Source: Monocercomonoides exilis PA203
Taxonomy: Eukaryota > Protista > Preaxostyla
Assembly: GCA_001643675.2 (NCBI GenBank)
Contig: LSRY02000010.1
Span: 248,001-312,000 of the forward strand
Reading direction: 5' to 3'
Length of the DNA: 64,000 nt
Positions 7,219 to 29,512 of the stretch are shown in pieces. The position numbers and the translations under genes were made by a program. Position 1 is the stretch's first letter, and each line of letters begins with the position of its first letter. Below the pieces are notes generated by a model. The model saw only the letters and a list, made by a program, of their open reading frames with translations. It searched no databases and had not been told where the DNA came from.

Positions 7219-7256
7219 TGTGCGGGTTTTTGCAACTGTTCGGGTTTTCCACCATA
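7219..7256 (+). repeat. Solo degenerate copy of the MITE terminus at 26937-26978
   Basis: tgtgcgggtttttgca (7219-7234) is identical to 26937-26952 and is followed, as there, by a second cgggttt and caccata. Confidence 0.55.
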
Positions 7257-7739
7257 CTATTATGTATTTAAAATTTCATTTTTTACAAAAATTGACATAC
7301 GAAATAGAAAACGATTTCTCAACAACCAAGTTGGATTTTATCAAATGGATAACCTAATAATATTTGTTGGAAAAAACAAAAAAGAGAGAGAGAATACATA
7401 AAATTTCATAATGACTGAAAGAATGTTATTTCTGTTCAACTTTGTCATTTTTAATTTTTCATTTTCTATGATCATTTTGAATATCAGCAAATCATAATAA
7501 AGGAAAAGAAAAGAAAGTAAATGAACAAAACATACACAGAAGCCGAAGCAGCGATGATCATTTTATTGAATAAAAATAAACAGGCAAGGCGAATATTGAC
7601 AGATGATAGAAAACACAGAAAAGGAAAATTTAAAATATATGAAAGAATCAAACGCAAATAGAAATTCCAATTTGAGTCGGAACCGATCGTTGAAAGATGA
7701 TGAATTGATGTGATGTTTTACGAACTGAATTTATTTTTT

Positions 7740-8500
7740 TCAAATTCCTCAATGTTTGACAGATATCATGGAAGATGAAAAAAGTTCATCCAAACTTGCC
7801 AATTGTTGATTGCAACAACACAAAAGTATTGCCTGAGTATGGTTCAAAAAGGAAGCTGTTCCCTTCATTCCAAAGAAATTGATATTTAATTGGATTCCTT
7901 TCTTTCCTCCAAAACTCCATTCTTCCTTTCATGTGTAGAGAAATAACCTTGCTGGAGTGTATCTCACGGAAAATCTATCTTCCTCCTTCTTCTCCAAATC
8001 TCATTTCAGCTGAAATGAAAACTGCCTTGAACAACAAGATTGCTTATTATTTCCAATCAAATGAATAAATTTCCTTTTGATGTTTCACTCCCACCAAACT
8101 TGAAAAACTCCATCATTTCTATTAGAACTGGACTTTATTCCTTTTCTTCATAGCACAAGATTATTTTGCAAATGAAGCATTGGACCTTGATCTTCTGTCA
8201 CTCAACAAGCATGTTCCCCATGTTCAAGAACTTTTCTTTTCATTTCTTTTGTTCAGACGATTTGTGATGATTTTCTAAATTTCTTTTCTTTTCTTCTTTC
8301 ACAATCCAATGATCCATTGACAAACGAGCTCAAAATGACACAGTCCACAAAATATGTCAAATCTTCAACAACCATCTGTTCTTGTTTTCAGACTCATTCT
8401 TCTCCACAAAAACTACTAAAAACATCTTCCGTTCGCTCATTCAATTTGCCAGATTTCTTTTCCTCTTTGCTAAAGGATTTGCTATTAATTCCGTTGACAA
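7740..8500 (-). pseudogene. Heavily decayed coding remnant, possibly the N-terminus of a surface-protein family member
   Basis: Coding-like composition on the minus strand with many stops (e.g. FSSLVG, FISAEM fragments); no long ORF. Confidence 0.25.
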
Positions 8501-8790
8501 AAAGATGTGATTCAAAAATTTTATTATCGATTTAAAAAATATCATTCTTCAAATAATATGTTGGTTTTGATCAAAAAGAAACATAAAATTTTCATTTCTG
8601 GACTTAGACGGTCAATCCTTGCGGCTTCTTCGCGATATCTTTAACATTTCTTTTTTTAAAGCAAAAACAGAACAGTTTGTGTTGCGATCATTTTAGTACT
8701 GCAATATAATCAACGATGTTTGTATTTATCTTTTATTTTGTTATTTGCCAGCTTTGCCCCACTTTTTGAATATTTTTTGCAACAAACAGA

Positions 8791-10190
8791 ATGAGCTTGC
8801 CAAATGATATATCTGAAAATGAACTTTTGACCACAGCCAGAACCAAGAAGTTTTCAAGTTTGTTCTTTTATTTGGATTGAACAATTTTGAAAAAGAATTT
8901 GTTTTTTTGAATGTTTTTTGAAGAATTGTTTCGTGAACTGGAGCGTTGCAGAGAAGATAAACAAAAACGGAAAATTGAGGAATTGAACAGATTAATTGAT
9001 GAAATGAATGAAATAGAATTTAGATCAATTTTCACAGAAGAACTATTTAATAAAATTCACCAAATGATTGAAGAAAAGAAAATGCGAATGGAAATTGCCA
9101 TTATCCTGATAAAACATGTTGGATATTGCAAAGCATTGAAAAGATTTTCTCTTTTTTCTTTTGATAATTCATTGCTGCGTGAAAGAATGAGAGAGATGAT
9201 GATTGATGAAAATGAGAAGAAAAAGGAAATAAACGAAAAAATTCTTACAGATCTCTGCGAATGCTATTTGTTGTTGAACAGATGGTTTTCATCTGAAATG
9301 GATTCAATTTGCGTGCCTTGCCTTCTGAAAGAAACCGGGAAGAAAGAAGAAAATGAGGTAATTCAAAAAGAAGTGGAAATGGTGTTACTGGCTTTGAGTT
9401 GCACCTATAAATATGATGTATGTTCGCTTCTATTTCCTTTTTGATGCTTTTGAAATATTTTTTTAATTCTGATTAGAATGTGTCAAAAGAACTGTATTTG
9501 AATGAGATCAAAACGATCATCGAATATCATCAGGAGCATCACAACCTTACCCGACTTGCCTATCAATCAGCTTGGAGGTTTTTGATAAACAGATATTATT
9601 ATGAAAATGAGAAAGATGTGATTATAAATGAACTGCATTTTAAAAGAGAGGTTGCAGGAGAATTAGAAGATCTTTTGAAGTGTATGGATTGGAAAAGAAA
9701 AGTTAAAGGAAGAAAAGAAATGTTTATAATAAGGAGATGGTTCGATGTTATTCATAATTTCTTTTCCTCATGCACATTGTGGAACGAAGAACTTGCTGGA
9801 CTCCTCGGAAGCCTCGTGAAATTATTTCGAACATCAAGGGACAGTCACAAAGATACAAGCTATGGATGCCTCGATTCACTTAGATATGCATCAGAAAAGA
9901 GAAATGTGAAAATTGTTGACTTGTTGAAAAGTGGAGCTATTGGTCTCTATTTGGAGGAAATGAAGCAATCAACTTTGGATGAAAAAATTATATGGTATTG
10001 TTTTTATTTCTTTTTGAATGTTTCAAAAAAATTTGATGAAAAGAAGGTTGATGAAATTGAAGAAGAAGAAAGAAAAGAAATGAAAAGAAAGACATTTGAA
10101 AGGATGGAAGAAGAAGGATTTGAAGATTGCATTGTGAGTTTTCACGAAAAGTTTTTTTCAATAGAAAATATTATAATGGTTCATCTTTGA
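8791..10190 (+). CDS. Lineage-specific expanded-family helical protein, three exons
   Basis: ATG at 8791. GT-AG introns 8858-8923 (joins TKKFS-K-LFRELE) and 9418-9476 (joins KYD-NVSKELYLNEIK) both preserve frame and merge track ORFs 8911 and 9480. Possible frameshift near 10150. Confidence 0.75.
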
Positions 10191-10310
10191 ATATTTTTGA
10201 TTATTTTGTGAATATTTGAGAAAATGAAACTCACTTTGTTAACAAATATTTTTATTTATTTGTTTTATACCTCTGTGGCATGGCAAGTTGTGGAATTATT
10301 TGCCTATCAC

Positions 10311-10449
10311 AAAAAAATAAAAATAAAAATAAAAATAAAAATAAAAATAAAAATAAAAATAAAAAAAAAAAAAAAAGAAAAAGAAAAAAGAAAAAAGAAA
10401 AGAAAAAGAAAAAAAAGAAAAAGAAAAAGAAAAGAAAGAAAGAAAAATA
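10311..10449 (+). repeat. (TAAAAA)n / (GAAAA)n A-rich simple repeat
   Basis: Direct reading of the sequence. Confidence 0.95.
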
Positions 10450-10535
10450 AACTAATTAATTAATTAAAATGAAAACAAAATAGTACGAATAATAGAAAAA
10501 ACTTTTAAAAACTTTAAAAAGAGCTTTGGAAAATT

Positions 10536-10880
10536 TTGTTGATCGCATATGAAATTTCTGATATTTTTTTGTCAGTGACGATCACTGACAAACTGAAGAT
10601 GTATGGTCCCATTAGTTCAACAACTCCAATGAAAAATACATATGGCACGACCATTATTATCCGTAGTAATCAACAGATAATCAAAAACCTACCAGACAAC
10701 TTTAATGTAATAATCTCAGGATATGCAGTACTAAAAGCAAGTGCAGACAAGATGTGCAAGATTGTCCCAATATTTGGTTATTTCGTGGATATGACCAGAG
10801 AAGGCTGTAGTAATCGTTTGCTCGTTTGGCCAGGTGAAACTGTAGAAAGTGGTGAAACAGGGGGTTATACAGCTTGGTGA
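10536..10880 (+). pseudogene. C-terminal fragment of an unknown element gene (beta-strand-rich, possibly structural)
   Basis: Coding-like sequence starts abruptly at ~10570 after AT-rich DNA and lies just upstream of the fibre gene. The track start is a TTG in host-like DNA. Confidence 0.4.
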
Positions 10881-10941
10881 TATCTCTAGGCGGAATACTT
10901 CAGACAAGAACACCAACATGTTTATTTTTTTTCAAACTTAA

Positions 10942-11784
10942 ATGACAAATGTTTTGAACGCGAAACTTGCGTTAATGTTAATGCAGAAAATACAGTATCA
11001 ACAAATCGCAAATGAAGTGAACGAAGTGAAAGAAGTTGTCGAAAATGTTAGTGGTGAGTCAATAGAACACATCAGAAACTTATCACAAATTAACTCAAAA
11101 ATAACCGGGCTGGAGAGTGATATAACTGAAATGAATGCAAAACTTGGGTAAAAAGCGAGAGTTTTCAACACTTACGAAGACATGAGTGAGTGGCTGAGTG
11201 TTCAAGATAATGTGAATACTTTGCAAATAGGTCAAACATTCTATATTGTTCTGAAAGATGTTCCTGATTATTGGTTTGATGGAACACAATTTTTGGAGAT
11301 AGAAACTGAGATAATAACACTCGAAGATTATTACAACAAAACGAATGTTGATGCAATGGTGGAAGCTGCTGTTAATGCTTTGTTCAACAAGATTTACCCA
11401 GTTAATTGTGTTATTATGAGATACAGTGCTGACGATCCAAACACACAATACACTGGTACAACATGGACAAAATTGACCACTGGCAGATATGTTAAGTTAG
11501 GCGTAATTGCTGGAGAAACTGGTGGTTCAGCCACAATGACAAGTTCATCGACAAAATTGACTGTTGATCAAATGCCTTCACATTCTCATTCGTTAATACT
11601 TTTCTAACAAGGTGGATCCAATCATAATGGATATTCTCTTGGCGGACACTTTTCAGAAAACAATAACGGTGTAATGTGTGGGGAAGGAAGCACCAACGAA
11701 GTGGGAGGTGTTCAAGGTCATGCTCATACTGTGTCAGTGACTCCATCATATCTCACAATTGAATTTTGGCGTCGAACTGCCTAA
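10942..11784 (+). pseudogene. Phage baseplate/tail-fibre-like protein (T4 gp10 C-terminal-like domain), two in-frame TAA stops
   Basis: ORFs 10942 and 11182 plus 11608-11784 are one frame with TAA at 11149 and 11605. Coiled coil, then VPDYWFDG, then IYPVN..DPN..GTTW..GRY..GETGGS..LTVDQMPSHSH..GHAH..PSYLTIEFWRRTA-stop. Confidence 0.75.
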
Positions 11785-13022
11785 CTTTGAAACATAAAAT
11801 AATTTTTGACAGCATCTGGAATCGTTTGATATGTTAAACTAACAAACTTTGTGAAGCATATCGGTAATTCCACAATTTCTTCAGATGGGATAATGGAACA
11901 AATAACATTACCGTGTTTGTATTCAATAAATTTTGCTAAATAATTAAAATTCCTTCGTTTCTTCGCAAATGCGTTTGACTTATAAAAGTGAATCATCAGT
12001 GTATAACCCTCAGAATAGTTGTGCATACTCTTTTTCATTTGTTGTTTCGTGAAATTTTTCAATGACTCCTTCACTTTACGAATATACATACCTTCAAGCT
12101 CCAAATCATTTTCAACTTCTCTGGGAGAATGCAAGTTGAAATAAGCTGAGTGTGGAGTGTCGTTGTAATAATCCACCAATTGTTGCATCATTCGTGGATC
12201 AGCCATGTTTCGAACATTATATCCAAAGCCATCTCTAAGTGTTCTGATCGCTCGATAAACAACACTGTTATGTTTCGTTTGTTTGCTGCTTGTGAAGAAT
12301 GTTTGTATTTCAATTTGTTCAAAGAAATTTGTTTGTCTCCTGCTTGTCCACACAGCTTCACGATCACTTCTAATGTGTTTTGCGTTAACTTGTTTTATCA
12401 GTTGTTCCAATGCTCTCAGCAATGCATTTTCTGTTTTATTGCTTATGGTGATAACCACAAGGAACTTCGTATTCACGTTAATTGCTACCATGAATGTGTT
12501 CAACAGTCTGTTTCGATCATCATTCAGTATAATAAGGTCAATCTCATATAAATGGAATGCTGGTGAGAAATATGGGTGTTGGAGTTTCAATAAGGGTTTT
12601 TGTTGATAATCAGCGGGGACTTCTTTTCTAAACAAAGGTTTGGACTTGAACGGAAAAATCAAGGGTTCAACATTATTTTTCGCAATATTCTTCTGTGTTT
12701 CCTTCTGTTGAATTCTTCGCATATGGAGTGGATAATGTTGGTCAATCTGTGGATTAAGTTCGTGGAGCAAATCTAAGTATTCATCATAGTATTGTCGGAC
12801 TGTTTTGTCACCATAATATATTTTTTCCATATTCTGTTCGATAAGTTTTCGTTTATCTGCATCGTGAGCTGTGAACTGTTTCTTAATAAATGATGACTCA
12901 GCTTCTAAATACTCCTGCTTCAAGAACGAATTGATAATTGTGGTCACATTATCTGAAGCTTTGTCCTTGTCCAATGACTGGAATAAATTATTCCATTAGT
13001 CAAAAATATTCTCCGAAGCCAT
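11781..13022 (-). pseudogene. Retroviral-type (rve) integrase of Maverick/Polinton
   Basis: YEIDL, FMVAINVNTKF, IRSDRE, NSVVYRAIRTLRD, YYNDTPHS. Upstream ATG at 13022 is in frame via a TAA at 12996-12998; the third acidic position reads Y. Confidence 0.85.
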
Positions 13023-13032
13023 TTTCAAATCG

Positions 13033-16000
13033 TTAAATAACACAATAATTCTTGGCCGATGCATTATACATGAATGATGCGCAACTTTCATCATCTAGCA
13101 CTACCATTTTCGTGTGTATTCCACTCAGAGCATTCTTTGTGATCCTCAGTTTTTTCATTTCACATTTCACATTCCTCAGGTTCAAAGATACAGACTCAAT
13201 AACAACATCATCAATCAGTGTTTGCAGGCAATCATTTACTTAAATTTCCTTTAATGTTCCATCCATTCCGATCACTTTAGCTGCAAAGCTCATGTAATTA
13301 TCATTGGTGTTAACCCCTTTGTTTTTCATAATCTCTATCCCATTGCATCGTATTGTGTAAGATTTTGGAGATAAAGTAATCATCCAATCACAAACTCTCT
13401 CAACAGTTAACCCCAACAATTTCTTTTGCTCCTTCACATCTGATGTTCCTGGAAACCAATATCCCACATGTTTGTTATTGAACTCGCGATTGATAAATAA
13501 TGCATCAAACCCCTGATTTATCCCGAGCTTGGAATGACCACAAATAGACCAATATGCACTATCAGTGTCACCTTCAATGAAATGAATACGTTCTAAATTC
13601 AAACATTTCATCATGAAGATGAAGACGAATCTGAGATACCACACTTTGGCGTTATCCAATGTCCATACCGCTGATTGCAAACAAGTGCAGCATGCTGCTT
13701 GTCTGGGCTGTTGTTCAACAGTGGACACATTAGCCCCCGGTTTCTGAGATGACACAAATGATAGAAATATTTGAGATCTCACTGTTTCTTCCTTCGATAA
13801 TAACGCTGTCTTTGGAAATATTTCAGTGTTCATACTATCATAAGCATACGATGAATTCAGCAGTAATTTCATAAACAGTGCTTCATTTTTGTTTCCCTCA
13901 GCAATAGCTTTAACCAGTTGATCCATCAAAGCACAAGCAAATGTTTTGAATACAGCGTTCTTGCTGAAGACAGCCATTTCCTTTAAATCATCGATCACAA
14001 GCCCACATTCCTTAATCATATAGAAGAGATGCTCGTTTGTGAAAGACATGAACTGGTTGTGAGTGCTAATCAATTGGGTGATTTTTGTCTCACGTTTGCC
14101 TATGTGTAATAACTGATGCTTCATTGTGTCCATCATTTTTGTTCCAACAATGTCTTCATTAGTGTTGAATGTTAAGTTTCTGATAATTGGTGGAAAAAAT
14201 AAACATTTGTTGATGTGTGATTCTTTGATATGTCCTTTCAGTGAAACAATGAATAATTTATCGTGTTCTGCAATGATTCTGTTCAGAACATCCATCTTTG
14301 TTGTGTAGAATTCACAATGCCATGGGATGTACATTCGTTTTCCAAAACAGTTCTTTATTGATGAATATGCTGATGGATACAAACTGTTGAAGTCCACACC
14401 CATAATGTGAGTCATGATGTTCGGAGTATTTTTTGATATTATCGTGTTGTCAGCATGGTGGAAATGTGATATGTGAGATTCGCCAGCAATGTTGATTCTG
14501 TGCATAACATTTGACAATCCCCCAGTTATCGAAGAACGTAATAACGAATATACTCTTGAATCATCGAGTGCGAGAGGCAAGTTATGATACAGCGCGAACT
14601 TCTTCATCTGTATTCTCAGTCTCGTGAGGTGTTCATCCCTGTCCGATTTCACAACATTGCAATACAAACACGAAAACTTCACATTATCTATTGAATGTCC
14701 TTTCGAATTATCTATTCTGTAGAGTGTGTGCTTATTGTTTGTAGTGAACGAAGCGTTGCACAAATGACATTTTTGTTGAAATAGTTCAACAGCCCAGTCA
14801 TAATCATCATTAGTTATTGAATTATTTCGCAAACTTTTGGCATCCTGAAGCTTGTATCCATCAACCATTTTCCTCCACTTTTCCGTTGTCAGTTTATATG
14901 GTTTCTAATATTTGGAAATAAAGTAATCAGCATGAATATCAAAGTCTGGATATGGTGGATAACCTGTGAATAATGATGGAAAATAACAGGACACAAACTT
15001 AGCAGCAGCTGCATTCGATGCTGCAGAAACTGAATGGATCATATCAATTTTGAAACGAGCGAATAAAATAATTTGATTTCTGATGGGTTTAATCATAATA
15101 ACAGTATCTTGCTCGTTATAATATTTGAAATAATCCCATCTGTTATTGAATTTCTGTTCATCATCAACATATTCGTTGTATTGTGTTTCAATCAGTGTGT
15201 TAATACCTTTCAGTGATGAGTGAAACGCTGTATGAGGGAATGGAGTGGTTTGAGTTAGCACTTCTTCATAATTAGATGAATTGATGGCTTCGTGTGGAAA
15301 CGCACCTTTCTCTTCACTTCCATCACCAAAGTCTTTGACAAACGAGTCAAAAGTTTGAGGAAATACATAATGTATTCGATCAACGAATCTCAATATGATA
15401 TGTTTGATGTTGTGAGATACCATAATCTGTTTGGCATGGTTCAGTTTACCAAGAACTGATGTCACAGCCAATTCTTCAGATATTTGATACGGGATGATAA
15501 ATGCGTTGTCGAAGTTCGATGAATTCCAGCCGATAGCATTAACAACTTTTGCATTATATGGGATATTTTCATCCTCATAACGATTTGATTCTGCAATTCG
15601 GTCAGCAATTGTAAACATTCACATGATCGCTTTTGTGATAAAACATTCACTATCTGTTGAATCTCGTTTATCGAAATACTGTGTGGACATTTCATCACTT
15701 ATTACCGCTGTCATTGTAATCGATAATGGTATTAGTTTGCTGACTGTCTGTGTTTTATCCCATGTTTCCTCTTCATCGGCAAACTTTTCTATTGTTTCAA
15801 AATCAAAAGCAATTAAATTCATTGTTGGTTTCCACTTGTCCATCATTTCGTGTGCAAGCAAGTATTCAGTTGTTTTGTTGTTCAAAATGGCTGTTGACTC
15901 TTGGACCGTTTTATTGTTTTTGTCTCTCCTTCTTTGCATTTAGCTACATGTTTTTCGAAAAGTTCAATACAATGGTTATCGACTTTGTAAGGTCTGGCAT

Positions 16001-17309
16001 ACGATAAACAATATGGGCAAACCTTCATTTTTGTCAACTTGTCTGGGTCAACAACGTGCATAATATGCATTCGCTCAGGTGCATTAATGAGCAATACATT
16101 CAAAGTTTTCTCAGCCTCAGGGTAAATATAAAACTGTGACAGGTGATAATTGTTTTTGGAGTTGTATGCATACAGATTAACGGAAACATTGAAGAAAGTC
16201 GTGAATTTGTCCATTTCTGTTGCAATATTTAATCCTTTGTGTGTTCTCAGATATGGTGTCAACAAACGTTGTTTACTGTTATCATAATTATAGAACTCAG
16301 CAAACAAACGCTTCGCTTCACACAACCTCATGTTGCTGCTGATCTTTCTATCAGCCGGCATTGTCAAAAAGGCTAATGCAATAAACATACAGATGGGGTA
16401 TTCACAATTAACGTGATTAACATTGTGTGTGGCAATGTGTTCCGCAAGCCCCGGGAAGTTCATCCCAATCTCTCGCAAGTAATACACCTTGAACATCACT
16501 GAAAATATTGCACACATTCTGTTTCTTGTGTCCAGAAAAGTTAAATCTTTGTTGTCTAGTATCCTCCTGTTCATTGCCTCTTTGAGTCTATCAACATCGA
16601 AGGCTGATGACACAATCATCGGTCTGGTTGTGATAAATGCTTGCTCACTGTTTGGTAGAACAGCATGGTATATGTACTGAGGTATTCTATCAATTTACCC
16701 TTCCAGTCTTTCGAATATCACACCAAAATCATACTGTATTTTTATCGGCATTTTCATTTTCTCTTGTTCGATAACATGTTTCAAGAAATTGACGATATTC
16801 TCGAATGAACAGATGCGATTGTTATAGTAATATCGGTAAGGTTCTGAGTCATCTGATACATAAGTGGGTTTCATTGATTTTCGTATACGCTCCAGTTCAA
16901 TCTCAAAGTCATGAACTTGGCTTAGGGGAAACAACAAAAGTGTACTGTTTTCTTCATCATCTGATTCAAGAGCTGTTTGTTCAATTTGTTGAGTATTGTT
17001 TGTTGACTCGTTAATGAATTGAAGCTTTTTCTTGAAGAATTGTTCTAATGCATTCTTCTTATCAAACTTATCAGCCTCGGTTTCAGCAATCTGGAACATT
17101 TGTTGAATATCTTCCATTATTTCGTCTGATATTTTTCGTTCGTTAGTCTCATGAAATGAACAGATGTCATCATAATCACTGTACTTGCCAGCATAACCAA
17201 GTATCGAAATATGTTGGTGAAACTGTGAGACTTTCGCAAAGTGATGAACAGCTGTGGGCTTAAACTTAAACTTCTTGCACAATTCAATTAATTGATTTTT
17301 ATTTAACAT
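13033..17309 (-). pseudogene. Protein-primed family B DNA polymerase with HNH/endonuclease-VII-like insert
   Basis: Exo I AFDFET, Exo II GWNSSNFD, KGAFPHE, Exo III YYNEQD; Pol A DFNSLYPS, Pol B KLLLNSSY, Pol C EGDTDS, KGVN. CxxC..TLYRIDNSKGHSIDNV..CxxCN lies between exo and pol. Five track ORFs join through in-frame stops (16695 TAA, 15619 TGA, 14905 TAG) and one frameshift near 15885; the frame continues past TAA 13240 to a final TAA at 13033. Confidence 0.9.
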
Positions 17310-17351
17310 TTTAATCACGAAAAAAATAAATTTTCTTTCACTTATTTTGAT

Positions 17352-18305
17352 TTATTCAATATCCATTGCTGATGGATCTGATGGAACAGATGACGAGGAA
17401 GCTGAGGCAGAGGAATCTCTGTATTTGTGTACAATATCAATAAAAGGATTGGAATACGCTTCATTGAGATTAAGCTCAATTTGTTTAAGATCTTTCTTAT
17501 TGAATACTCCTTTAGCCACTTCAAGCGTTGTGTCAGAGTATCTTCCCATTAAACGTTCAAAGTCTCCTGCCGTTAATTTGCCATGCAATTTTTTCCAAGT
17601 TCCTCTGTTTTTCTGTAATAAGTGATGGACATCATTAGCTGTGTCATATGAACTTTATGTTGGGTCGATTGCAACGATCATATCTTTTATAAGACATCGA
17701 ACGAAAATCACGTTTGCAAATTTCATCACACAGGCTGAATATGCCAGTTTTTGTTTTTTCATAAAATCATCAATTGCCGTATCCTTCCAATCAACATCGT
17801 TAAGAATCGACTCAACAACCCTTCGTTTGAAGTCAATATTTATGTTAGTGACCTTGTGTCCTTGCACGAACTCCCTTAATGATTGTTTTTTTCGAACCTC
17901 ATAATCAAGGTATCTATCCACAAAATCCTGTGTTAATTTTTTTCTCTTTAATTCATCACCTGTTACATATCCGTCCGTTGCATATATCTTCCCTTTGGGA
18001 TCTTTCCATATGATTTTGTCAGGAGTTGCCGGGTTATTATCATGATCAATTTGGTCAAACGTCCAGGCTTTATCTCTCCAAAGCTTCCTCCGTTTTAGAT
18101 TATCCTCTCCAGATTTTTCTCCGATCAGTTCTTTAATCGTCCGTATCTCACGTTGTTGATTAATTACGATGTCGTATAAGTCCTCCATTTGCTTGTCATG
18201 ATCACGTTTTTGTTTAGGTTTAGGTTTAATCGTTTTTCTTTGACCTAGTTGTGCCGCAATATCTGGCAACGATATCACACTCTTTGATGAAGTCATTGTT
18301 TTCAT
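17352..18305 (-). pseudogene. Hypothetical element protein (~317 codons) with one in-frame TAA
   Basis: Track ORFs 17655-18305 and 17352-17588 share a frame; only the TAA at 17655-17657 separates them. Confidence 0.6.
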
Positions 18306-18316
18306 AGGAGTGAAAA

Positions 18317-19220
18317 ATGATAGATAGTGATGCGAAACAGCTTGTTGACGAGATCAACGTTTTATCATTAGAAAACTGTGTCAATGAAATGATGGAAGAC
18401 ATGAACGATAATCTAACAGATGAGTTGCAGACTGAGATACACCCTGACTTATCCTTCAAACGCAATTCTGTTTCATTACTCGTGAGGGCAAGATGAAGTG
18501 GTAAAACATACAGTGTGTTGTACGAAACGGCGAAAGTTAGTGAATTGAACGATCTGTACACAAGATTTCCAGAAATTCAATACAGTCCATATTCGCTGTT
18601 TGTGTACATTTCTGATAAAACAATAGATAGAACATTCGCGAGAATGGAAAAGTTCATTAACATCCCCATTGTGCAAGTGCGTTACAAAGAAGCATTTCAA
18701 ACATTAACCGATATAAGCAGAACCAAAGAACTGCACAATCGCATTCGTTCTGGTGAACAATATGATGAAGATATTCAGCAAGCAGTATTTGATTCATTGA
18801 ATGTCAATGATTCATAACAAAAACATCATCACACCGCAGTTTTTATTCGATGACTGAATGGAAATATTCAAAAAGAAAGATTGCATCTTCCAACTGTTAT
18901 TCGAGAATGGACAGCCAATGATCACACACTTCTTATTCTTGCAAGATCCAAAAGGAATAAGTAGTGAGGTGAAAGCTAACTTAGATGCATTGTGGATTTT
19001 TGGTGAATTCTCCAAACAGAAGTTCAACTATGTGTATCATCAACTGCCGACAAGCAAAGATCGTGAAGAAATGCGGAATATTTACAAGTATCTGAACAAA
19101 AATGATGTGATGCATTGTTCGTTTAACACTGACGAAACTGTCATTAAAACAGTAGTTAATGAGACAATGTTTAAGAAAGATGATGACAAAACAACGACAC
19201 TGAGAAGACGAACAGTATAA
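18317..19220 (+). pseudogene. Virion genome-packaging ATPase (A32/FtsK-HerA type)
   Basis: ATG 18317; Walker A region SLLVRAR*SGKT (TGA at 18494); Walker B FLFDD before 18858 after a frameshift; FLFLQD motif C and downstream NLDALWIF. Confidence 0.75.
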
Positions 19221-19238
19221 ATGAAATAATATGAATGT

Positions 19239-19601
19239 TCATTCACTTAGCATTTTGAATGTTTTCAGTGCTTCAATAACGACTTCCATCTGCTTTGCCA
19301 ATGTGTTGATGGAATCAATGATACCGTCGAAATCTGGATTTTGTTTATCTTCGTTGATGGTACTTTGCTCGTGACATTTCTTTAATGATATTTTACCTTG
19401 AAGTTTGGTGATTCGATATCCAGGAATGTGAAACTGTTTGTTCAGCTTGCAAGTGGTCAGTTTATTCATCTCCTCTTCATTATCAGCGAGATATTCTTTA
19501 AACTCCTGAACTGTTTCAAATGTTCTGATGTCAGGAGAAAAAGGTTCAATGATAGTTAAATCTGGTAATTCTTTTCTAATAGTCTTAGATGTTTTTGACA
19601 T
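19239..19601 (-). CDS. Small uninterrupted element protein (120 aa), function unknown
   Basis: ATG-to-stop ORF convergent with the ATPase (18-bp gap); IIEPFS..TF.T..EF and TTCKLNKQFHIPGYRITK segments plus a C-terminal coiled coil. Confidence 0.6.
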   Translation of the reverse strand: MSKTSKTIRKELPDLTIIEPFSPDIRTFETVQEFKEYLADNEEEMNKLTTCKLNKQFHIPGYRITKLQGKISLKKCHEQSTINEDKQNPDFDGIIDSINTLAKQMEVVIEALKTFKMLSE

Positions 19602-20930
19602 CTTTTGAAGAAGATAAAATACATTTATTGATTCTGTTTCACATTATCACTTTATTTAAGAACACTATTATTTATGTTTCATTGATGAAATTTGAAACAT
19701 AATGTGAGGTGTTTGGTTTTGTGATTGATTTGAATTAGATTATTATTATTTATTTATAAATTTTTATTTTCGATATCGATAAATTATTTATTGTTTAATT
19801 TTGATTGTCATTAAGCACTTTTCATTAAGCACTTATCATTTATTACTGTGAATTAGGTTTTGATTTTGAGTTCTAAATTCCCTGCGAATTTGACTGCTGA
19901 GCAGCTATGAGCAACACTGTCTCATATATCGCAAAGAGGCATGATTTATTTGATTTGACAAATGTTTGAAAATTTGTCGCCTCTGATGGGTATTGAACCC
20001 TTGATTTTAATAATGAAAGGCCATGGTATTCCCCTTAAGTTATAAAAGCTAAAAATAAATTTGCATATTTCATATTTTCTTTTATTTTTAAAGATAATAA
20101 ATGAACATATTTTTTTATCGATACCAAACACCATTGCAATCATTAACACCCATCGACATTAATTACAACACCTCACCCCCCACAAAACGTTACCACACAA
20201 CCTCCACTTTAGAGACTCAACTCCCGAAAGCATTTGTGAACTCCCAACGAATAAGATACATTCACGTTATTTAGTACAAACTGATCAAGAAAATCGATCT
20301 CAATAAAGATCATCCCAACGAACTCGTGGATGGGGACAAAGTCTCCTTGAGCAACTTCGTAGCGAACACTATTGCACTTGATGAACCCCAGCATGTATCT
20401 CTTCATGCCGATTTAATTCACGAGGACAGAGACAACGACAGTTTAGTGCGATACTGCAATAATATATCAAAAACGAGACAAATATTAATAGTTCATCAGA
20501 CGAGATAGCTTCAAAGTGTGGTTTCAAAACTTGGATGGAACACTGTTGGATATGACAAATGTGAAGTTCATGTTGAAGAACATGCTGGAGTATTTGAGTG
20601 GACTTTCACATTGATGAAATACAACTGACCACACACGTTTGTTGTATCATTAGTTGAATCGTCAATTATTTCAAACAGTGTCCACTGAAGCGCTATGGTG
20701 GATAGCCAATGTCAATATTTTTTGAACAAATGGCATTATGGTGGATTGTCACATAGATGTTTTTCATTTGATTTGGTGGTTGTTTTGGTGTATTCAACTT
20801 GAAAAAGTGTAAATCGGTGTCCAGAATACGAAATTGTGGTAATGTCTGAGACTCAGCAGAGGGATTTATAGGTTAAATCTCCGTGCTGGAAGCGTTGACA
20901 GGCAGTCCGGATCTTTAAATATCATCTGAG

Positions 20931-21132
20931 AAGAGCTGCCAACATGCTATTTTTACCAACATGAGCATTTAACTCCTTATTTATCATGATTTTGAGGGTT
21001 TTTATTTATTTTCGATTGCATCATCATTCTGCCACATTGCCACATGGAATCGTTGGTGGAATATAACTGGTGGCACACACTTCTTGTATCATTGGTGTAT
21101 TAATGATTCAAAAAAAACGAATATGTTTTGTT
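20931..21132 (+). repeat. Left arm of inverted repeat flanking the primase-helicase
   Basis: 20931-21096 is the exact reverse complement of 23805-23970 (166 bp); near-identical to 21132; degenerate similarity continues outward to ~20630. Confidence 0.95.
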
Positions 21133-21434
21133 GTTACAAACAATTATCACACTGGCCCGGGTCAATTGGGCAGTTAATTTAGTGCTGTGGCGTTGAAATA
21201 TTGGGCTAAATCTCCGAGCTTTTCACCTGCACTGTGTGCACCGCATCAATTGTATCCTATAAATAATGTGGGCAAACGGGTGAACTGAGCATAGTGGGCA
21301 AAACACATTTAATGTGAAAATTAACTGTTATCGTTCATTTTCGACATTTCCTTTAACATCATCTTCCCCGTAAATTTGCGTAACAAAAATAAATCTGTTT
21401 CAAAAAAAATTTTTGTTTTTTTAATTTTTAAAAA

Positions 21435-23770
21435 ATGACAAACCCCCAAACAGACACTGACAACGTGATCCAACAACTAATTGATTCAATGTCAACAGAA
21501 CAGCAAACGTTGGGAGAACGAATGAAAGATCACATTGTTGACTTGTTCGACTACAAGAAATACTCTGACAAGAAGCAAGGTCAACGCCACACTGGAACAG
21601 TTGTCGATATCAGTAAATGTGAGGATCTTTGTGTCGTTGATGTTGACATTAACAAATCCCTTCAAACTGAACAAACGAAAGCCATCAGGAATTCCATCCT
21701 CAAGATACTCCCCCGAAATGTGGGACTTGTACAAACAGCTCATGGCTGTCTTCATATTTATTGTGAGCTGTGTGATTATCTCCTCAAATGTTCGTCACAA
21801 ACCAAAGTGTTTACGAGTCCAGAGTACGATATCGACATTTTTGCAGGTATTGTGGATGAAAAACATAGGTTTGTTGCACAAGTTGACTCTTCATACAGAG
21901 AAATGAAAGATGGCAAGAGAATCGTCACCAAATACATTCCCCTCAACAATTACAGGGAGCTCAGGGATTTTTCTCCACTCGAAAGTGTTCTTGACATCTT
22001 CGGTATTGATCTCAAAACAGAGAATTCATCAGCCGTAATGGAAGCTGAACCACACAATCTTCTCACACAAGATAATGTCGTTGATATGTTTCCAACTGTC
22101 GCTCTTGCTCTTATCGATGGACTCAAAGATGTTAAAATACATAACGACACAGGTTCTTTGTTACTTGATTCTGAGTTAACTCTTTTCTGTTGTTTGCAGC
22201 TCTCAATTCTCTTATCAACATTAATGGTTTCGTCAACGGATTGATATATTTTCTTTTCAATCAAATCAAAGAGACAGCCTCTCTTACAGCAAATGCAATC
22301 ACTAACTTTGAACAGAAACGAAACAGATACAGAGACTGCAAGTCACATCCATTTGTTCAAAAAAAATTGTCAAGAGACGGAATCCAACATATTACAACGA
22401 TGTGATCATTCCACTCCTCAGAATAGAGAATGAGCAAAATGAATAACCTCCACGAGAGATTACTGCACATGAAATAGATCTCAACTCATCGTTCTCGTTC
22501 TCTGAAATCAGGGATCAAGCTTGTCGAAAACAATACTCCTCACTGCCTGAAGTCGCTGAAGATCTCACAAAAGTTCTGAGGTTTGTTGAAGCAAGGATGG
22601 AATTCATTGTGAAAGAATTTGACATTCACACCTCTTGTTATTCGATAACATTCAAGACAAAACCTGCAATGAACGAACTGTTCAAAACATAAAAACTCTG
22701 GCATGATGATAAAAAGACTTTCACTGTTGAGACAGCTTTCGAACAATACTCTCATGTTCTATCGATTGATGGGGTGAAGTTCTTCACAGATAACCCTCGA
22801 ATATTCTCTCTATTCCATGGGTTCAAATGCCAAATGGCAAACGAACAAAACGACGAAATCATCAAACCATTCCTTGATTTCACACGAGAAGTTTTCGCCA
22901 ACGACAACGAATAACTCTATCAATACATCCTCTGTTGGATTGCGTCAATTGTTCAAAATTCTGGTCATAAAGCAGAAACATCACTTGTTCTCAAAGGTTT
23001 GCTAGGAATTGTAAAGAATGTCTGGACAAATGTCCTTACTAAACTGTTGGCAGGATATTCATGTCCGAATGTCACAGGGATTGCAGAACTGACAGGACAG
23101 TTCAACTCCATCGTCGAAGGGAAAATGCTTATTGTTCAAAACGAATTGAAGAATGTTGGAGATGATCAAACAGCTAACTTTTATGCATTGAAGAGTATAA
23201 TCACGGATTCAACAATCAGAATCAATGAGAAGAATCAGCCAAGAAGAACAGCTGAGAACGTCGCTTATTTCATATTTGCGACAAATCACACGTACTCGGT
23301 GAAGATTGAGATTGATGACAGAAGATATGTTGTTTGTGATTGTAACTCAAAAAACAAGAATAGTCTCATATTCTTCAAGGATTTCACAAGCTCTTTCGAC
23401 AATGAATTCCATGAACAACTTCTCCGTTATTTCCTCAGCAAAGATCTCTCCAATTTCAACACAAGGGATAATCCAACAACGGAGGCAAAGGAAGATATCA
23501 TTGCAGCATTACTCTCAGTTATTGAGGTGTTCTGTCAGGAGCATTGCAATAAACTCAAAGAAGTGTGAAGATGTTCCGAAGCACTCAGTTACAGACCAGT
23601 TGAATTCAAGAACTATCACTTATTCCAATTTGCAATCAAAGACAGATGTGAGAGAATACGAGAAGGTGGAAGAGGAAACAAAATCCAACGTTATGAACTC
23701 AAGCCAGAGTGTGAACCACTTTTCAAACGACAAGAAGATGAAGATTACATGGACTGTTCTGTTGAAATTA
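21435..23770 (+). pseudogene. Primase (AEP/Prim-Pol-like) fused to superfamily 3 (D5-like) helicase
   Basis: CVVDVD and TAHGCLHIY primase motifs; Walker A KGLLGIVKN, Walker B LIVQNE, LKSIIT..RINEK, FATNH, DDRRY. Frameshifts near 22190 and 22360; in-frame TAA at 22444, 22690, 22912 and TGA at 23566. 3' end approximate. Confidence 0.85.
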
Positions 23771-23970
23771 ACAAAACATATTCGTTTTTTGGAATCATTA
23801 ATAAACCAATGATACAAGAAGTGTGTGCCACCAGTTATATTCCACCAACGATTCCATGTGGCAATGTGGCAGAATGATGATGCAATCGAAAATAAATAAA
23901 AACCCTCAAAATCATGATAAATAAGGAGTTAAATGCTCATGTTGGTAAAAATAGCATGTTGGCAGCTCTT
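23770..23970 (-). repeat. Right arm of inverted repeat flanking the primase-helicase
   Basis: Reverse complement of 20931-21132; degenerate extension to ~24200. Confidence 0.95.
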
Positions 23971-24807
23971 TTCAGATGAAATGAAAAGATCCGGTTTACT
24001 GGTTTACAGGTTGACGCTTCCAGCACGAAGATTTTTGTCAATATTTCCCTTCTCCCAGCATCTCGATGTTTCCACAATTTGGAATCCTGAACACAGGTGG
24101 ACACTTTTTCTGTGCAAAAATATTGATGTTGGCAATCAACTTTAATTCCATCGTAACTTCTGTATGATTCAATCAACAAAACAAATAATGTGAACCACTT
24201 GTTATTTTTCGACAATTTGCCCATTTTGCCCACTTTGCTCAGTTTGCCCGTTTGTCCATATTATTTGGAGAATGAAATTGACACGGCGCATCCTGTGCAC
24301 AAAATGCAGGTGAAAAGCTCGGAGATTTATAACAATATCTCCATGCCACAGAATCACTCACATCACCTGACCAGTTTAACCGGTGAAGGCAAACAACCAT
24401 AAACTTTTTCCATCAACTCATCTCACATCTCATCACTTTCGATTAGCTTTCTCCTCAATATCTTAATCAATTTCTACTGTTTTTAAGATACATGTTCATT
24501 GGAATCCTCAGTTTTATCATTTCGTTTTTCCTGAAACTGTTTTATTTGTTTCTGTCGAGCCGCTTTTGCTTCTTCCACAGTTGTGAATATCTTCTTCAGA
24601 CCCATTTGGTATAAAACAAAAAACGAAATCAATTATTTTTATTTGCTATTTCACCCACGCTTACATCACATGTTCAACACATGTTCAACTCATGTATTTC
24701 ATCAACGAAAACACAATTTTTCACACAATTTCACCAATTATTTACCAACTTGAACATAACTTTTGTTAATCTTCCAGTTAATCTTTTTGCTAATTCTCCT
24801 CCTTGGA

Positions 24808-25054
24808 GATATGGTATATCAGCTATGGATATATCTCGATTACACCTATCAATAACTCCATCTTTATAGAACATCACTAAATATCTAATCATGAGAAACC
24901 CCATAAGAATATCAGCAATAACCCTCGATCTCTAACTTATTATCATTGCTTATTCCAAATTATGATACAAGATGATAACAGCCAGTAGATATTCATAAAT
25001 CGATAATATTGATTGACCTAATCGAGATGGATCTATAGCCGAAAACCATATATC
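24808..25054. repeat. Long imperfect hairpin near the right end of the viral element
   Basis: gatatggtatatcagctatggatatatctcgatta (24808-24842) pairs imperfectly with taatcgagatggatctatagccgaaaaccatatatc (25019-25054); further patchy pairing inside. Confidence 0.6.
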
Positions 25055-25657
25055 AAAAACACAATAAAATCGTTCCATTTTTTGACATTTTTGAAATGTT
25101 GGAAAACTTTATGTTTTGATTTCTAGGATACCTGTTTTCGGAAATGAAAATCAATATAATATCAAAATTTGAGAAAGTGTTATAGAGTTATGAGTTAAGC
25201 AATTATTCAATGCCATGCGCAAAAAAAACTTTAAAGTCCATATTTTCCCCCATTTGTGCGTATTCGGTTATTTGAATAACAAAAAAATCATTTATGCACG
25301 CTTTTTAATTTTCAATCTTATTAGGAACCTTTTTTCACAAATGATAATCGCAAAAAGAAAATAATTACGACTTCTTATGTATTTTTCACCTTTATTAAAT
25401 TTGACACAAACTCATATGTGTGATTATTTTTGAAATCATAAAATTTTTTTGGGGTTTGTGTTATTTTCTCATTCGCAGTTAATTGCAAAAGAATTTTCAA
25501 AAAAGTGTCACTTGCTTTTAAATTGTAGTCTTTCAAACGCATGTTGTCACGGAAAGATTAAGTTCATTTCTGATTTTAATGAAAACATGGAATTAATTTT
25601 CAAGTGTTTTTGACCAATTGTTAATTCGAAAATTTTGATAGAAAAAAATATGAAATC

Positions 25658-25816
25658 AAAAAAAAAGAAAAGAAAAAAAAGAAAAAGAAAAAGAAAAGAA
25701 AAAAAGAAAGAAATAAAGAAATAAAGAAATAAAGAAAGAAAAGAAAAGAAAAGAAAAGAAAAGAAAAAAAAAAGAAAGAAAAGAAAAGAAGAAAAAAAAA
25801 GGAAAAGAAAGAAAAA
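25658..25816 (+). repeat. (GAAAA)n polypurine simple repeat
   Basis: Direct reading of the sequence. Confidence 0.95.
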
Positions 25817-25828
25817 TTTTACACACAT

Positions 25829-26087
25829 GGGTGATTATTTTTGAAATCATAACTTTTTTCGGTGTGTCGATAATTATGAAAAATCATTGTCATTAACCTT
25901 ATAATTATCATTTGAATATAAATGCTATTTAATAGTATCAAAAACAAAAGGTTGATGAAAAATAAAGAAAGAGATGTTATTTATTAGAATTATCACTTTT
26001 CATTATTCATTAACAAAACTTTTAAAACAAAATTGAAAAAAACCGAAATTTTTGTTCAAACAAATATGATTTCAAAAATTATCACCC
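25829..26087. mobile_element. MITE with GGGTGAT(T/A)ATTTTTGAAATCATA TIRs flanked by AT
   Basis: 25827-25851 vs reverse complement of 26065-26089 match at 24/25; a third copy lies at 25416-25440. Confidence 0.6.
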
Positions 26088-26331
26088 ATATTTATTCTGA
26101 AAATCGTATTGTGAGTTAAAAAAGTGAAATAAGAAAAGAAGGCCAAATATAACATAGAAAAGGTTCAATACAAGTTAAAAGAAATAATGCAGGAATGAAG
26201 AATTGAGATGCTATGGCTTTTACGGTCGGTAAGAAATATTTTCTTCATGGCCAGCAAGTTTATGACTTAGATCCTATTTTTATCAAAAAGATAATTGACT
26301 TTTTTAACACAAATATTACTTTTAAAAGATA

Positions 26332-27449
26332 CACCAAAAATAATTCAAAATCGAAAATTAATAATTCGAATTCGGAAATTAATTATTCAATTTCGTAATT
26401 TATTAATTCGATTTCGAAAAACTTTAATTCAAAATCGAAAATGATTATTTCAATTTCGAAATCCATTATTAACTGAAATTTTTAATTTTTCTCAAGAATG
26501 GATTTCAGAAAAATTCAAGTTATTTTTTAACCACTCATATTTTATTACTCAAAAAAAACTTTTTTTTTTTATTGCAACAATCAATAAATCAATTCTTTAA
26601 AATTTTTTTTCCATTTTTGAAAATCATCATACAAATAATAATAATATAATAGTTGGGTGCAAAACCCGCACTTGTGCAAAAACCCGCACACTTGACATTT
26701 TCTTTCGAAATACTCTTCCACATTCATATATGTGAAAGCGTTTGGCATTTTGATGCCACCTATAACCAAAAACAAAAATTTTTGATCTTTTTTGATCTTT
26801 GGATCAAAAATTTTTGTTTTTGATTTTTCATTCGAAATACTTAATATTGGACAAAAAAAAGTTATAGGTTGCATCAAAATGCCAAACGCTTTCACATATA
26901 TGAATGTGGAAGAGTATTTCGAAAGAAAATGTCAAGTGTGCGGGTTTTTGCACAAGTGCGGGTTTATGCACACACCATAATAAAAATTCATTCTATTGAA
27001 TCATTTAATAAAAATTGAAAAAATTTAATTATGATTATTGAATTATTTCTTCACAATAATGTGATTGTTTCATTGGCAAAATTTTGAATAATACCTGTTT
27101 TAATCATTAAAATGTATTTATTTCCTTTTCAAATTTACTTCAATCAATAAATTTTCATTCAAAATGAAAGAAAATTTTAAAATGAAAATGCGTCATTTTT
27201 CAAATATAGATAAACATAATTTGCTGATGAGACAAAAATTTAAAGAATTTATAACCCCAAATACAAGTTATTCATTCCACAAAACAAAAAAATTTTCGTT
27301 TCGAAATCGAATTATTCTTTTTCGAAATCAAATTTATAAATTACGAAATAAAATTATTAATTTCCGAATTCGAATTATTAATTTTCGATTTTGAATTATT
27401 AATTCCGAAATTGAATTATTCTTTTTCGAATTTGAATTATTTTTAGGTG
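26332..27449. mobile_element. Foldback/MITE-like element with ~21-bp subterminal tandem repeats, TA-flanked
   Basis: ta|cacc...ggtg|ta termini; aataattcaaaatcgaaaattaataattcgaattcggaaattaat (from 26339) is matched in inverted orientation around 27357-27401. Confidence 0.7.
26662..26965. mobile_element. Young MITE with 105-bp inverted arms and an internal hairpin
   Basis: 26662-26766 vs 26861-26965 differ at one position; the spacer holds a 20-bp IR (26768-26787 / 26802-26821). Confidence 0.85.
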
Positions 27450-28095: not shown

Positions 28096-29512
28096 CTAAT
28101 CTTCTTTCATTTTCTTTTCTTTTTTCCATTCTTCAAGAAATTTTTGTTCAGTAATAATTTTTCCAAAAAAATCAAACCTGTGTGTTCTCTTTTTCAGTGT
28201 AACCGAAGGTTCCTTTGGAAGTGTTGATAATACGGAATTCCATTCGTTTAAAAGCACGCCGTTTTTCATGAACGAAGAAACAACAGTTACAGGAAGCAAT
28301 TCCGTCTGAAGAGCTTGTGGAAGAACGTTGGAAATGGCCTCACGTCGAAGAGAAATGGAAGAATCTGGAGGCACAAAGAAAAGAGAGTTGATGCATTTTT
28401 TGAATACAGCAAATACACCACGATCAAGAGGTTGTGTGATGTGTGAACTGTGAGGAATAAAAGTGACGACGTCAATGTTGTTATCAGCAAATTTCTGCCA
28501 TATGTCAGGCTGAGCCCGAGAAGAATGAGAATCCAAAAGCAGAAGACATCTCTCGTTGGTTTTCATTAATATTTTCCTTCTTTCGATGATTCCAGTTAAT
28601 AAAACCTCTTCTGCGTATCTTTGAAATATGCTTTCCGTCATCCATCCATCCTTGTTATCCCAAACATCAATGAATGCGCTCAAAAGAACTCGCATTTCCT
28701 TTGGTAATTTGTGGCATGGCCACAACACAATGCTTTTGAGAGAATATCCATCTGCAGCAGCTGCGACAACCAAAGTGGCATTTGGCATGTTTGTGGGTGT
28801 TGTGTGAAATCCAGCTGGAACTCCTGTGGGGTGAATCACAAGATTTTTGAAGGAATCCGATAAGCGGAGTGAAGATTCATCGGTGTCAAAGATCAGAGAA
28901 GGTGAATAATGATGAGAATTGTGAAGATTTTGTAGAAGCTCGTAGAAACGAAGCAGAGCTTGTTGATTGGATACTGAAAGACGTTGGATATCCACATTTC
29001 TGGGCATGGACGCTTTGAGCTCAGAATTCCTTTTTGCAAAAAGATATGGATATGATTTGGACACACTGGAATTTTCATCAACATCAGTTTCTGATCGTCT
29101 TTTTTTGTCGGATAGGACGGATTCCATCTGAAAAATATTTATTATTAAAAACGAAATATAAATAAATGTGTAATCAAACTAATTCTCTTGTTCTCTTTGC
29201 ATTTAAACTTGTTCCGGATAAACTTTCGTTTTTTATAACTCCAACAATAATATTCTTGTCATCTTCATAGAATAGTTCTGGCCTGCCAGATTTTCCAACA
29301 TCTCTTCCACTTTCAACCGCTGAAACTGCTCTGATAACTGCAGAACGCGAGAATTCTTTTGAATTAATTGCGTCGACAATTCGTACATGACCATCTACAA
29401 CAATACGTGCCATGCGTTCTAATCGATTTTCAATTCTTCGATATTCAAATGACATCTTTTTTTCTCGAAGAATTAACTGTCCTCGTTCTTTTTTATTTTC
29501 AACAACACTCAT
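28096..29512 (-). CDS. pogo/Tc5-type DD35D transposase, two exons
   Basis: Exon 1 has an HTH and GRP motif; phase-0 GT-AG intron 29179-29128; exon 2 has DTDESS, AAADG, DGWMT, LLLLDSHSSR and IPHSSHITQPLD. Confidence 0.85.

Follow-up and report, generated by a model that had tools for sequence, protein, structure and literature searches.

Within a 64,000-nucleotide stretch of the genome of the oxymonad Monocercomonoides exilis PA203 (assembly GCA_001643675.2, contig LSRY02000010.1, positions 248,001 to 312,000 of the forward strand; hereafter the window, numbered from its first letter), we identified a decayed and truncated new member of the Maverick/Polinton group of elements already known from metamonads. 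The reading that we find most probable, and hold with some reserve, is that positions 10475-20744 are the dead, single-copy, truncated remnant of a Maverick resembling the class 3 Mavericks of Trichomonas vaginalis (TvMav3), and that the adjacent primase-helicase gene did not belong to this copy and derives from a separate, dispersed multi-copy unit. An earlier note, made from the letters alone, had described the region 10568-25054 as one endogenous virus with an unusual gene set. The core of the remnant, with strands relative to the window, is made up as follows.

10475-20744, no strand: single-copy Maverick/Polinton remnant (the core), covered by zero-difference unitigs at single-copy depth; truncated on the right, no terminal inverted repeat (TIR) found.
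10599-11784, plus strand: fibre pseudogene with an N-terminal part, a coiled coil, a 'VPDYWWDG' module and a C-terminal tip of the T4 gp10 type (Gp10_C, PHROGs, HMMER).
11784-12995, minus strand: rve-type integrase, an uninterrupted open reading frame (ORF) of 404 codons (Pfam rve 5e-5, below the cut-off; profile of three relatives 2.9e-57).
13036-17312, minus strand: full-length pseudogene of a protein-primed PolB, collinear with an intact 1499-aa relative; four in-frame stops and one frameshift.
17355-18305, minus strand: 317-codon gene, function unassigned, with one TAA stop at 17657 (no usable match in Pfam, PHROGs or Atlas searches).
18380-19217, plus strand: A32/FtsK-type packaging ATPase pseudogene in two frames (both pieces matched in tblastn, E 3e-16, by a 278-aa ORF of the related metagenome locus L012).
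19242-19601, minus strand: uninterrupted ORF of 120 aa, conserved as an accessory gene in this Maverick group (tblastn matches in 3 of 16 related loci, L004, L010 and L014, E 1e-6 to 1e-10).
20185-20382, plus strand: possible, weak scrap of a long gene, of at most 828 aa, that stands beside PolB in relatives (33% identity along 66 aa with a piece from L004; E 1e-3 when all of the window is searched).

The assignment to the Mavericks, already made in the earlier note, stands: the polymerase is 37-45% identical to PolBs of T. vaginalis, Streblomastix strix and gut metagenomes, and both an integrase and an A32-type ATPase are present. We found 78 PolB relatives at E<=0.001, of which the top non-self ones (39-45% identical) came from these same sources; the only 100% match was the window's own piece, and no protein named M. 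exilis was among the 78. The gene is collinear with T. vaginalis P0007, from a 350-member cluster (7.7e-139, 37% identity by tblastn), and its frame segments align to residues 193-548 (E 4e-8) and 559-1498 (E 1e-149) of the 1499-aa relative. The motifs DFNSLYPS and EGDTDS are both present. IMG/VR scans with the single PolB and helicase proteins gave no match.

On the minus strand, one frame runs from 18353 to 15882 and another from 15939 to 13240, and the only breaks in them are TAA 17657, TAA 17354, TAA 16697, TGA 15621 and TAG 14907. TAA 17354 is a genuine gene end. PolB itself is broken by TAA 16697, TGA 15621, TAG 14907 and TAA 13242 and by a frameshift near 15900, and its relatives carry ordinary sense residues at the nonsense positions. 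A 68-aa tail downstream of TAA 13242 is conserved in 10 of the 16 related loci, thus PolB extends from 17312 to 13036. Inside it lies an HNH-like module, CxxC..TLDRIDN..GH..N..CxxCN..K, conserved in all 16 aligned homologues, including those of T. vaginalis and S. strix. The module is a trait of this PolB clade and not peculiar to this element; the match to Pfam HNH_5 has an E of just 0.6.

In the integrase, alignment with relatives showed that the first two acidic residues are retained and that the third is replaced by Y. The ATPase carries a TGA within Walker A (18494), a frame change near 18815-18860 and a TGA after Walker B (18855); Walker A and B are still recognisable, though interrupted. 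The L012 ORF that detects it has itself a weak Pox_A32 match (0.0018). For the 317-codon gene, a family of 352-395-aa proteins found next to PolB in six related loci gave an independent E of 0.14 in hmmsearch and, in hhalign, a probability of 26% and an E of 7e-4 over 122 columns with a common W..D.D..D motif; we tentatively regard the gene as a distant relative of that family. At 20185-20382, two further members of the large neighbour family gave short collinear matches in the same frame, with chance-level E of 2.5 and 6.7. The comparison set was 16 metagenome loci with PolB relatives, each of at most 13 kb, and in these related loci homologues of the integrase, ATPase and 120-aa ORF adjoin PolB.

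All seven genes named in the earlier note (fibre, integrase, PolB with HNH, 317-codon gene, ATPase, 120-aa ORF and primase-helicase) are real and lie close to where it had placed them, most of them requiring read-through, and its figure of about 20 ORF fragments is fair, as we counted some 20-25. Every gene except the integrase and the 120-aa ORF is disrupted by stops or frameshifts. Together, the core genes hold 10 in-frame stops and 3 frame changes.

The closest described system is TvMav3, of which Sullivan et al. 2025 report 1705 copies (supplementary file 1, Tables 3-5; PMC12289875). The typical order tabulated there is TIR - DUF4106 - S2 capsid-like - 14 - primase - 7 - DUF4108 - 10 - A32 ATPase - KilA-N - DUF3839 - KilA-N - PolB - c-integrase - phage tail-repeat protein - S1 - TIR, with a primase in 91.8% of copies, an HNH endonuclease family gene in 24% and a 'Poxvirus D5 protein' in 8.6%; no adenain-type protease is listed in these tables for TvMav. 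When the window is flipped, its order is primase-helicase, 120-aa ORF, ATPase, 317-codon gene, PolB, integrase, fibre. Hence primase, A32 ATPase, PolB, c-integrase and a tail-like gene stand in the same relative order in both, an HNH-type nuclease is found in both, and the PolB (37-39%) and primase-helicase (44%) proteins are homologous. The gene set is therefore not unusual as the earlier note had thought, since primase, phage-tail-like gene, HNH, A32 ATPase, PolB and c-integrase are all tabulated for TvMav3 (PMC12289875), and the element largely nests within an already described family of the same gene content. There are differences, however. The window's host is an oxymonad, a single dead copy is at hand, and the primase-helicase sits in a separately amplified unit. 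According to the same tables, the HNH of TvMav3 is a separate gene, whereas the HNH-like module lies inside PolB here; moreover, TvMav3 has TIRs of 100-130 bp with poly-A/T outer ends, and S1/S2 capsid-like, DUF4106, DUF4108 and KilA-N genes, none of which we detected here.

More broadly, the passages of Bellas et al. 2023 on such elements (PMC10120064) describe a 'Metamonada group' of Maverick-Polinton endogenous viruses from five parabasalids and the oxymonad S. strix. Its hosts belong to the same supergroup as M. exilis, and S. strix proteins are among the closest relatives of both PolB and the primase-helicase of the window. The major capsid protein is what defines that group, in contrast to this copy, in which no capsid gene was found, and the S. 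strix elements read TAA and TAG as glutamine (PMC10120064), which the window element does not. With the canonical Polintons/Mavericks of animals and other protists (Krupovic et al. 2014, PMC4028283), the element shares the protein-primed PolB, the rve integrase and the FtsK/A32-type ATPase. Their adenain-type protease, jelly-roll capsids and TIRs were not found here, nor was a target-site duplication of 5-6 bp seen, the ends of the remnant not being defined; the phage-type fibre and the HNH-like module of PolB are extra. In the open literature that we searched, we found no Maverick reported from Monocercomonoides, though a 2025-26 preprint survey of viral regions in 7,103 eukaryote assemblies may already list the locus. 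Neither Maverick nor Polinton nor virus occurs as a word in the M. exilis genome paper, the passages of Bellas et al. on these elements make no mention of Monocercomonoides, and one paper, by its title and abstract a general review, contains both Monocercomonoides and Polinton.

The right-hand part of the region is of another kind, and its features are the following.

20801-21303, no strand: left inverted-repeat block, made of X (20801-21132) and Y (21157-21303), recognised by complementarity to the right block.
21435-23850, plus strand: pseudogene of a D5-type archaeo-eukaryotic primase (AEP) / superfamily 3 helicase (DUF5906 4e-17, VapE-like 2.5e-5), with two frameshifts and stops at 22690, 22912 and 23566.
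23770-24383, no strand: right inverted-repeat block, overlapping the last primase-helicase codons, recognised by complementarity to X and Y.
24384-25054, no strand: part of a different, more abundant repeat (24384-25226) outside the element (depth 4500-12700 against 32-135 in the core; no Pfam match in six frames).

Copy depth was assessed with Logan contigs from four DNA runs (X1-X4), all derived from one single sample, aligned over 9000-27000 at a likeness of at least 80%. A 9101-nt contig spans 10475-19518 without a difference, and further zero-difference unitigs cover 19495-19811 and 19955-20744. The last of these core unitigs stops at 20744 in all four runs (19955-20744 in three of them, 20086-20744 in X3). 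Summed contig depth, which is not copy number in this or any later figure, is flat over 10803-19216 (X1 32-49, X2 98-135, X3 2.6-7.4, X4 2.1-5.6), reaches 1125-2700 in X1 and 1816-3215 in X2 over the primase-helicase, whose bins stand at about 15-65 times the core depth across the four runs, and is 4500-12700 over 24025-25226. Many diverged contigs map to the primase-helicase, and only the locus's own contigs map to the core. The core, 10475-20744, thus lies at single-copy contig depth, and the sequence from about 20745 to 24383 belongs to a dispersed multi-copy family.

The depth jump, the diverged contigs and the contrast between at least 16 annotated M. exilis D5-like proteins (on at least 12 different contigs) and no M. 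exilis-named PolB together indicate that the region is composite. The single element of the earlier note is accordingly not confirmed, as the unique unitigs end and the depth jumps at 20744; its right end at 25054 falls inside another high-copy repeat, and what it took for a second replication module is a primase-helicase in a separately amplified multi-copy unit beside a single-copy core.

The primase-helicase is collinear with all 804 aa of the M. exilis paralogue P0223 (77-81% identity), and its read-through over 22447-23874 is 69-88% identical to M. exilis paralogues annotated as 'putative Poxvirus D5 protein'. These values, and the roughly 50% identity of the fibre to an M. exilis protein, bear out the gut anaerobic protist host proposed in the earlier note. 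The gene retains VVDVDINK and TAHGCLHIY, which we take to be the AEP DxD and sGGhH-type motifs. Walker A is mutated, reading GLLGIVKN in the window and GLQGIGKN in an intact paralogue. An IMG/VR scan with the primase-helicase alignment returned only distant matches, in 79 loci, at 25-35% identity over the helicase part. A D5-type primase-helicase as replication gene recalls Polinton-like viruses and Tlr elements, which are described as having a helicase or primase-helicase in place of the protein-primed PolB (in the relevant passages of PMC10120064 and PMC4028283). Unlike these, the unit of about 3.6 kb in the window lacks genes for a capsid, an ATPase and an integrase.

The only long inverted repeats in the region are those that flank this gene. 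Block X pairs with 24110-23770 at 87% complementarity along 343 nt, and at 97% in a core of 210 nt, and block Y pairs with 24383-24224 at 75%; as a result, inverted copies of the 3' end of the gene and of its downstream sequence lie on both its sides. On another contig, the C-terminus of P0223 reads into the inner part of the right repeat arm. The repeats may delimit a small unit, or may represent, rather than TIRs, the tail of another unit in inverted orientation; TvMavs, too, are reported to be concatenated and nested. An inverted match of the left end of the remnant (10440-10700), sought in 19600-26000, was not found, and with it no TIR of the whole element; the fibre-side end has no similarity to the primase-side repeats. 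Two A-rich tracts, 10306-10451 and 25655-25817, bracket the whole composite region; they are 79-81% alike over about 145 nt, in direct and not inverted orientation, and may be a chance pair or a common microsatellite-type target.

Several observations weigh against a composite origin. The depth figures are sums over contigs, as said above, and the rarity of PolB in M. exilis is judged from annotated proteins between 304 and 970 aa in length and from contigs with a likeness of 80% or more. Five genes (primase, ATPase, PolB, integrase, tail-like) stand in the TvMav3 order, and the primase is integral in 91.8% of TvMav3 copies and present in a further related locus, L096; the adjacency seen here could thus be ancestral. 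In addition, none of the 16 related loci has a homologue of the fibre, the 317-codon gene or the primase, and blocks X and Y are interleaved rather than nested, one arm containing the 3' end of the gene.

The alternative that draws most on these points is that 10.5-24.4 kb is a single TvMav3-like Maverick with its own primase-helicase, the extra depth coming from eroded remnants that keep only that part. We consider it possible, though clearly the less probable account. The shared gene order speaks for it, with a primase in 91.8% of the 1705 copies of the TvMav3 tables (PMC12289875), and so does L096 (1-9384), in which a D5-like gene, 29-55% identical to the window pieces, directly follows a DUF4108 ORF and lies 5 kb from an A32/Zot-like ATPase that matches the L012 ATPase, all in one compact cluster with an 843-aa ORF. 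L096 is filed under a 'Bacilli bacterium' metagenome-assembled genome from sheep colon; it almost certainly comes from a protist or virus and was binned wrongly. A single element does not, however, account for unique unitigs that end at 20744 in four of four runs together with a depth jump, for inverted copies of the gene's 3' flank on both sides, for a fibre-side end that shares nothing with the primase-side repeats, or for the absence of any PolB protein named M. exilis against at least 16 D5-like ones.

A further alternative concerns the nature of the unit itself, which would be a non-autonomous mini-Maverick or satellite that lost its interior by deletion, kept the Maverick ends and the primase-helicase and relied on the integrase of a Maverick to move it in trans. 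In its favour, the unit is multi-copy, dispersed and about 3.6 kb long; inverted repeats, matching at 97% in a 210-nt core, enclose it, and the inner part of its right arm recurs, conserved, in a paralogue from another contig. Nevertheless, the repeat blocks are interleaved and not nested, no target-site duplication is readable, and the ends, inspected in one copy, were not matched to any Maverick TIR, and on this evidence we think the satellite origin rather unlikely.

The decay of the fibre gene consists of a frameshift near 10878 and in-frame TAA codons at 10939, 11149 and 11605. The 'VPDYWWDG' module is widespread. The last 210 residues match Pfam Gp10_C (PF21939) at 4.5e-7 and 31.3 bits (cut-off 27), over profile positions 1-139 of 139, and also match six PHROGs tail families (tail 3e-13, tail-fibre 3e-11). 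In an exhaustive HMMER search it had 1870 relatives, the top one being a 240-aa M. exilis protein (50% identity, 1.3e-50), and an alignment of 19 sequences showed invariant P..H.H (P-x-H-x-H) and C-terminal W+RTA motifs, both retained in the window. A model of an intact M. exilis paralogue, of middling confidence (pLDDT, the predicted local distance difference test, 63), had phage baseplate chains and T4 gp10 as its first structural matches, with a probability of 0.95-1.00 and template modelling (TM) scores of only 0.28-0.36. Thus the full-profile match, the two motifs and the fold all liken the tip to the C-terminal domain of T4 baseplate gp10 (PDB 2fkk, 2fl8) and to tail-fibre tips; the window fibre differs in being encoded by a eukaryotic endogenous element, and the TM-scores are low. 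A word-indexed search found no fibre homologue of 167-532 aa, tblastn of the fibre against 50,697 phage records gave no match at E<=1e-3, and the sole match in a PDB sequence search was a spurious repeat protein.

M. exilis also encodes five intact fibre-tip proteins of 240-245 aa (P0229 and P0378-P0381) that are at least 90% alike and lie on five other contigs; they match Gp10_C at 3.8e-11, and two of their contigs apparently hold D5-like genes too. These five may form a younger virus-like family. Their existence, and the lack of a PolB protein named M. exilis, would fit a fibre that is not the Maverick's own and came from another element or a host gene family. We hold this to be improbable: fibre, integrase and PolB lie together in one zero-difference single-copy unitig (10475-19518), the fibre ends only a few bases from the integrase stop codon, its position past the integrase near the element end equals that of the phage tail-like genes of TvMav3, and its decay is on a par with that of its neighbours.

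Finally, the in-frame stops could be sense codons in a different genetic code of the virus or a former host, with TAA and TAG read as glutamine as in Streblomastix, whose elements are so described in the passages of PMC10120064 on them, and the PolB frames of L004 and L010, broken in the standard code, are much longer under table 6; yet the stops here mix TAA, TAG and TGA and are accompanied by frameshifts, those in PolB align with E, with N/V/D/S/E/T and with T/Q/S/V in relatives (Q in one sequence at one site only), and host ORFs run for as many as 3715 codons without a stop in the standard code, which leaves this reading scarcely tenable. Translation with TAA/TAG as glutamine was accordingly rejected, given the TGA stops and the frameshifts. 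As a separate observation, the table-6 frames of L004 and L010 would fit hosts with a Streblomastix-like code.

The earlier note had proposed a virion-forming virus. For this copy that proposal is not supported, as no capsid, protease or TIR was found in what is a truncated remnant. Pfam and PHROGs searches of the ORFs, and of 19600-21400 and 23900-25700 read through in six frames, gave no capsid match, no adenain-type cysteine protease was matched in Pfam, and with Pfam thresholds of E<=1 or <=0.1 neither the ORFs nor these six-frame stretches yielded a DUF4106, DUF4108, KilA-N or S1/S2 capsid-like match. Profiles of the four families that neighbour PolB in the related loci, with members of 828, 527-577, 352-395 and about 175 aa, found nothing in the window save the 317-codon gene and 20185-20382, both weakly; these families are themselves unidentified, and a very diverged capsid remnant could escape their profiles. 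Searches of the PDB with the neighbour-family profiles were empty, PHROGs gave no match below 0.02, and the AlphaFold model of the 577-aa family had a pLDDT of 31.9.

By analogy to Polintons, the genome of the live ancestor would have been copied through protein-primed synthesis by PolB, inserted by the rve integrase and packed by the A32-type ATPase, and a trimeric fibre with a T4 gp10-like tip would have attached the particle to the host cell. The window copy is capable of none of copying, insertion, packing or attachment. The copy numbers suggest that amplification of the primase-helicase unit was independent of the PolB core, perhaps through movement in trans, and the unit would then have landed next to the remnant or been concatenated with it.

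The surroundings of the remnant are a transposon-rich tract. The window is AT-rich (GC 0.24-0.49 per 2-kb step), with intron-free ORFs of up to 3715 codons that are open in the standard code, and tRNA and Rfam scans of all 64 kb gave no match. Transposase ORFs of the DDE_1 (pogo/Tigger-like) and DDE_Tnp_4 (Harbinger-like) types lie at 3538-5742 (plus strand), 28096-29178 (minus) and 31058-31666 (minus), and an open-ended ORF of about 1097 codons at 60706-63999 (minus) has a Phage_integrase (tyrosine recombinase) domain (3e-6) and is likely a Crypton- or DIRS-type element. Just left of the core, at 8911-10190 (plus), are two ORFs (177 and 237 aa) that match no family; their summed depth in X1 is 4800-8600 against about 40 in the core, and this very high depth makes them part of an abundant unclassified repeat or gene family. 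To the right, a number of inverted repeats occupy 26339-27444, one pair of them 105 nt long and 99% alike (26662-26766 and 26861-26965), with 21-bp tandem arrays on either side and very high contig depth; they have the look of miniature inverted-repeat transposable elements or foldback repeats. The longest ORF (3715 codons, 49147-60294, plus) is G/S-rich, has a signal-peptide-like start, no Pfam match and a very strong GC skew (0.29-0.49), and probably encodes a giant surface protein of the host, repetitive in sequence.

The window adds a second oxymonad genus to the hosts of Mavericks. In a 2026 preprint (10.64898/2026.06.19.733378), the passages on metamonad Maverick-Polintons leave them unplaced among polinton-like viruses owing to their highly divergent morphogenetic genes, and ask for more genomes from related hosts; a dead copy that lacks capsid genes is no help alone in placing that group. 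The gene content once thought unusual is already documented in the TvMav3 tables; the more interesting question lies in the PolB-less primase-helicase family and the five near-identical fibre-tip genes. Fibre tip and primase-helicase both have more, and younger, copies in the M. exilis genome than the polymerase core. It is conceivable, although we would put little weight on it, that Monocercomonoides harbours a PolB-less mobile family, in which a Maverick-derived D5-type primase-helicase with inverted repeats has outnumbered and outlived its parent Mavericks, maybe travelling with the five fibre-tip genes. If such a family exists, it would show, inside one genome, a self-replicating Maverick in the course of becoming a Polinton-like or satellite element.

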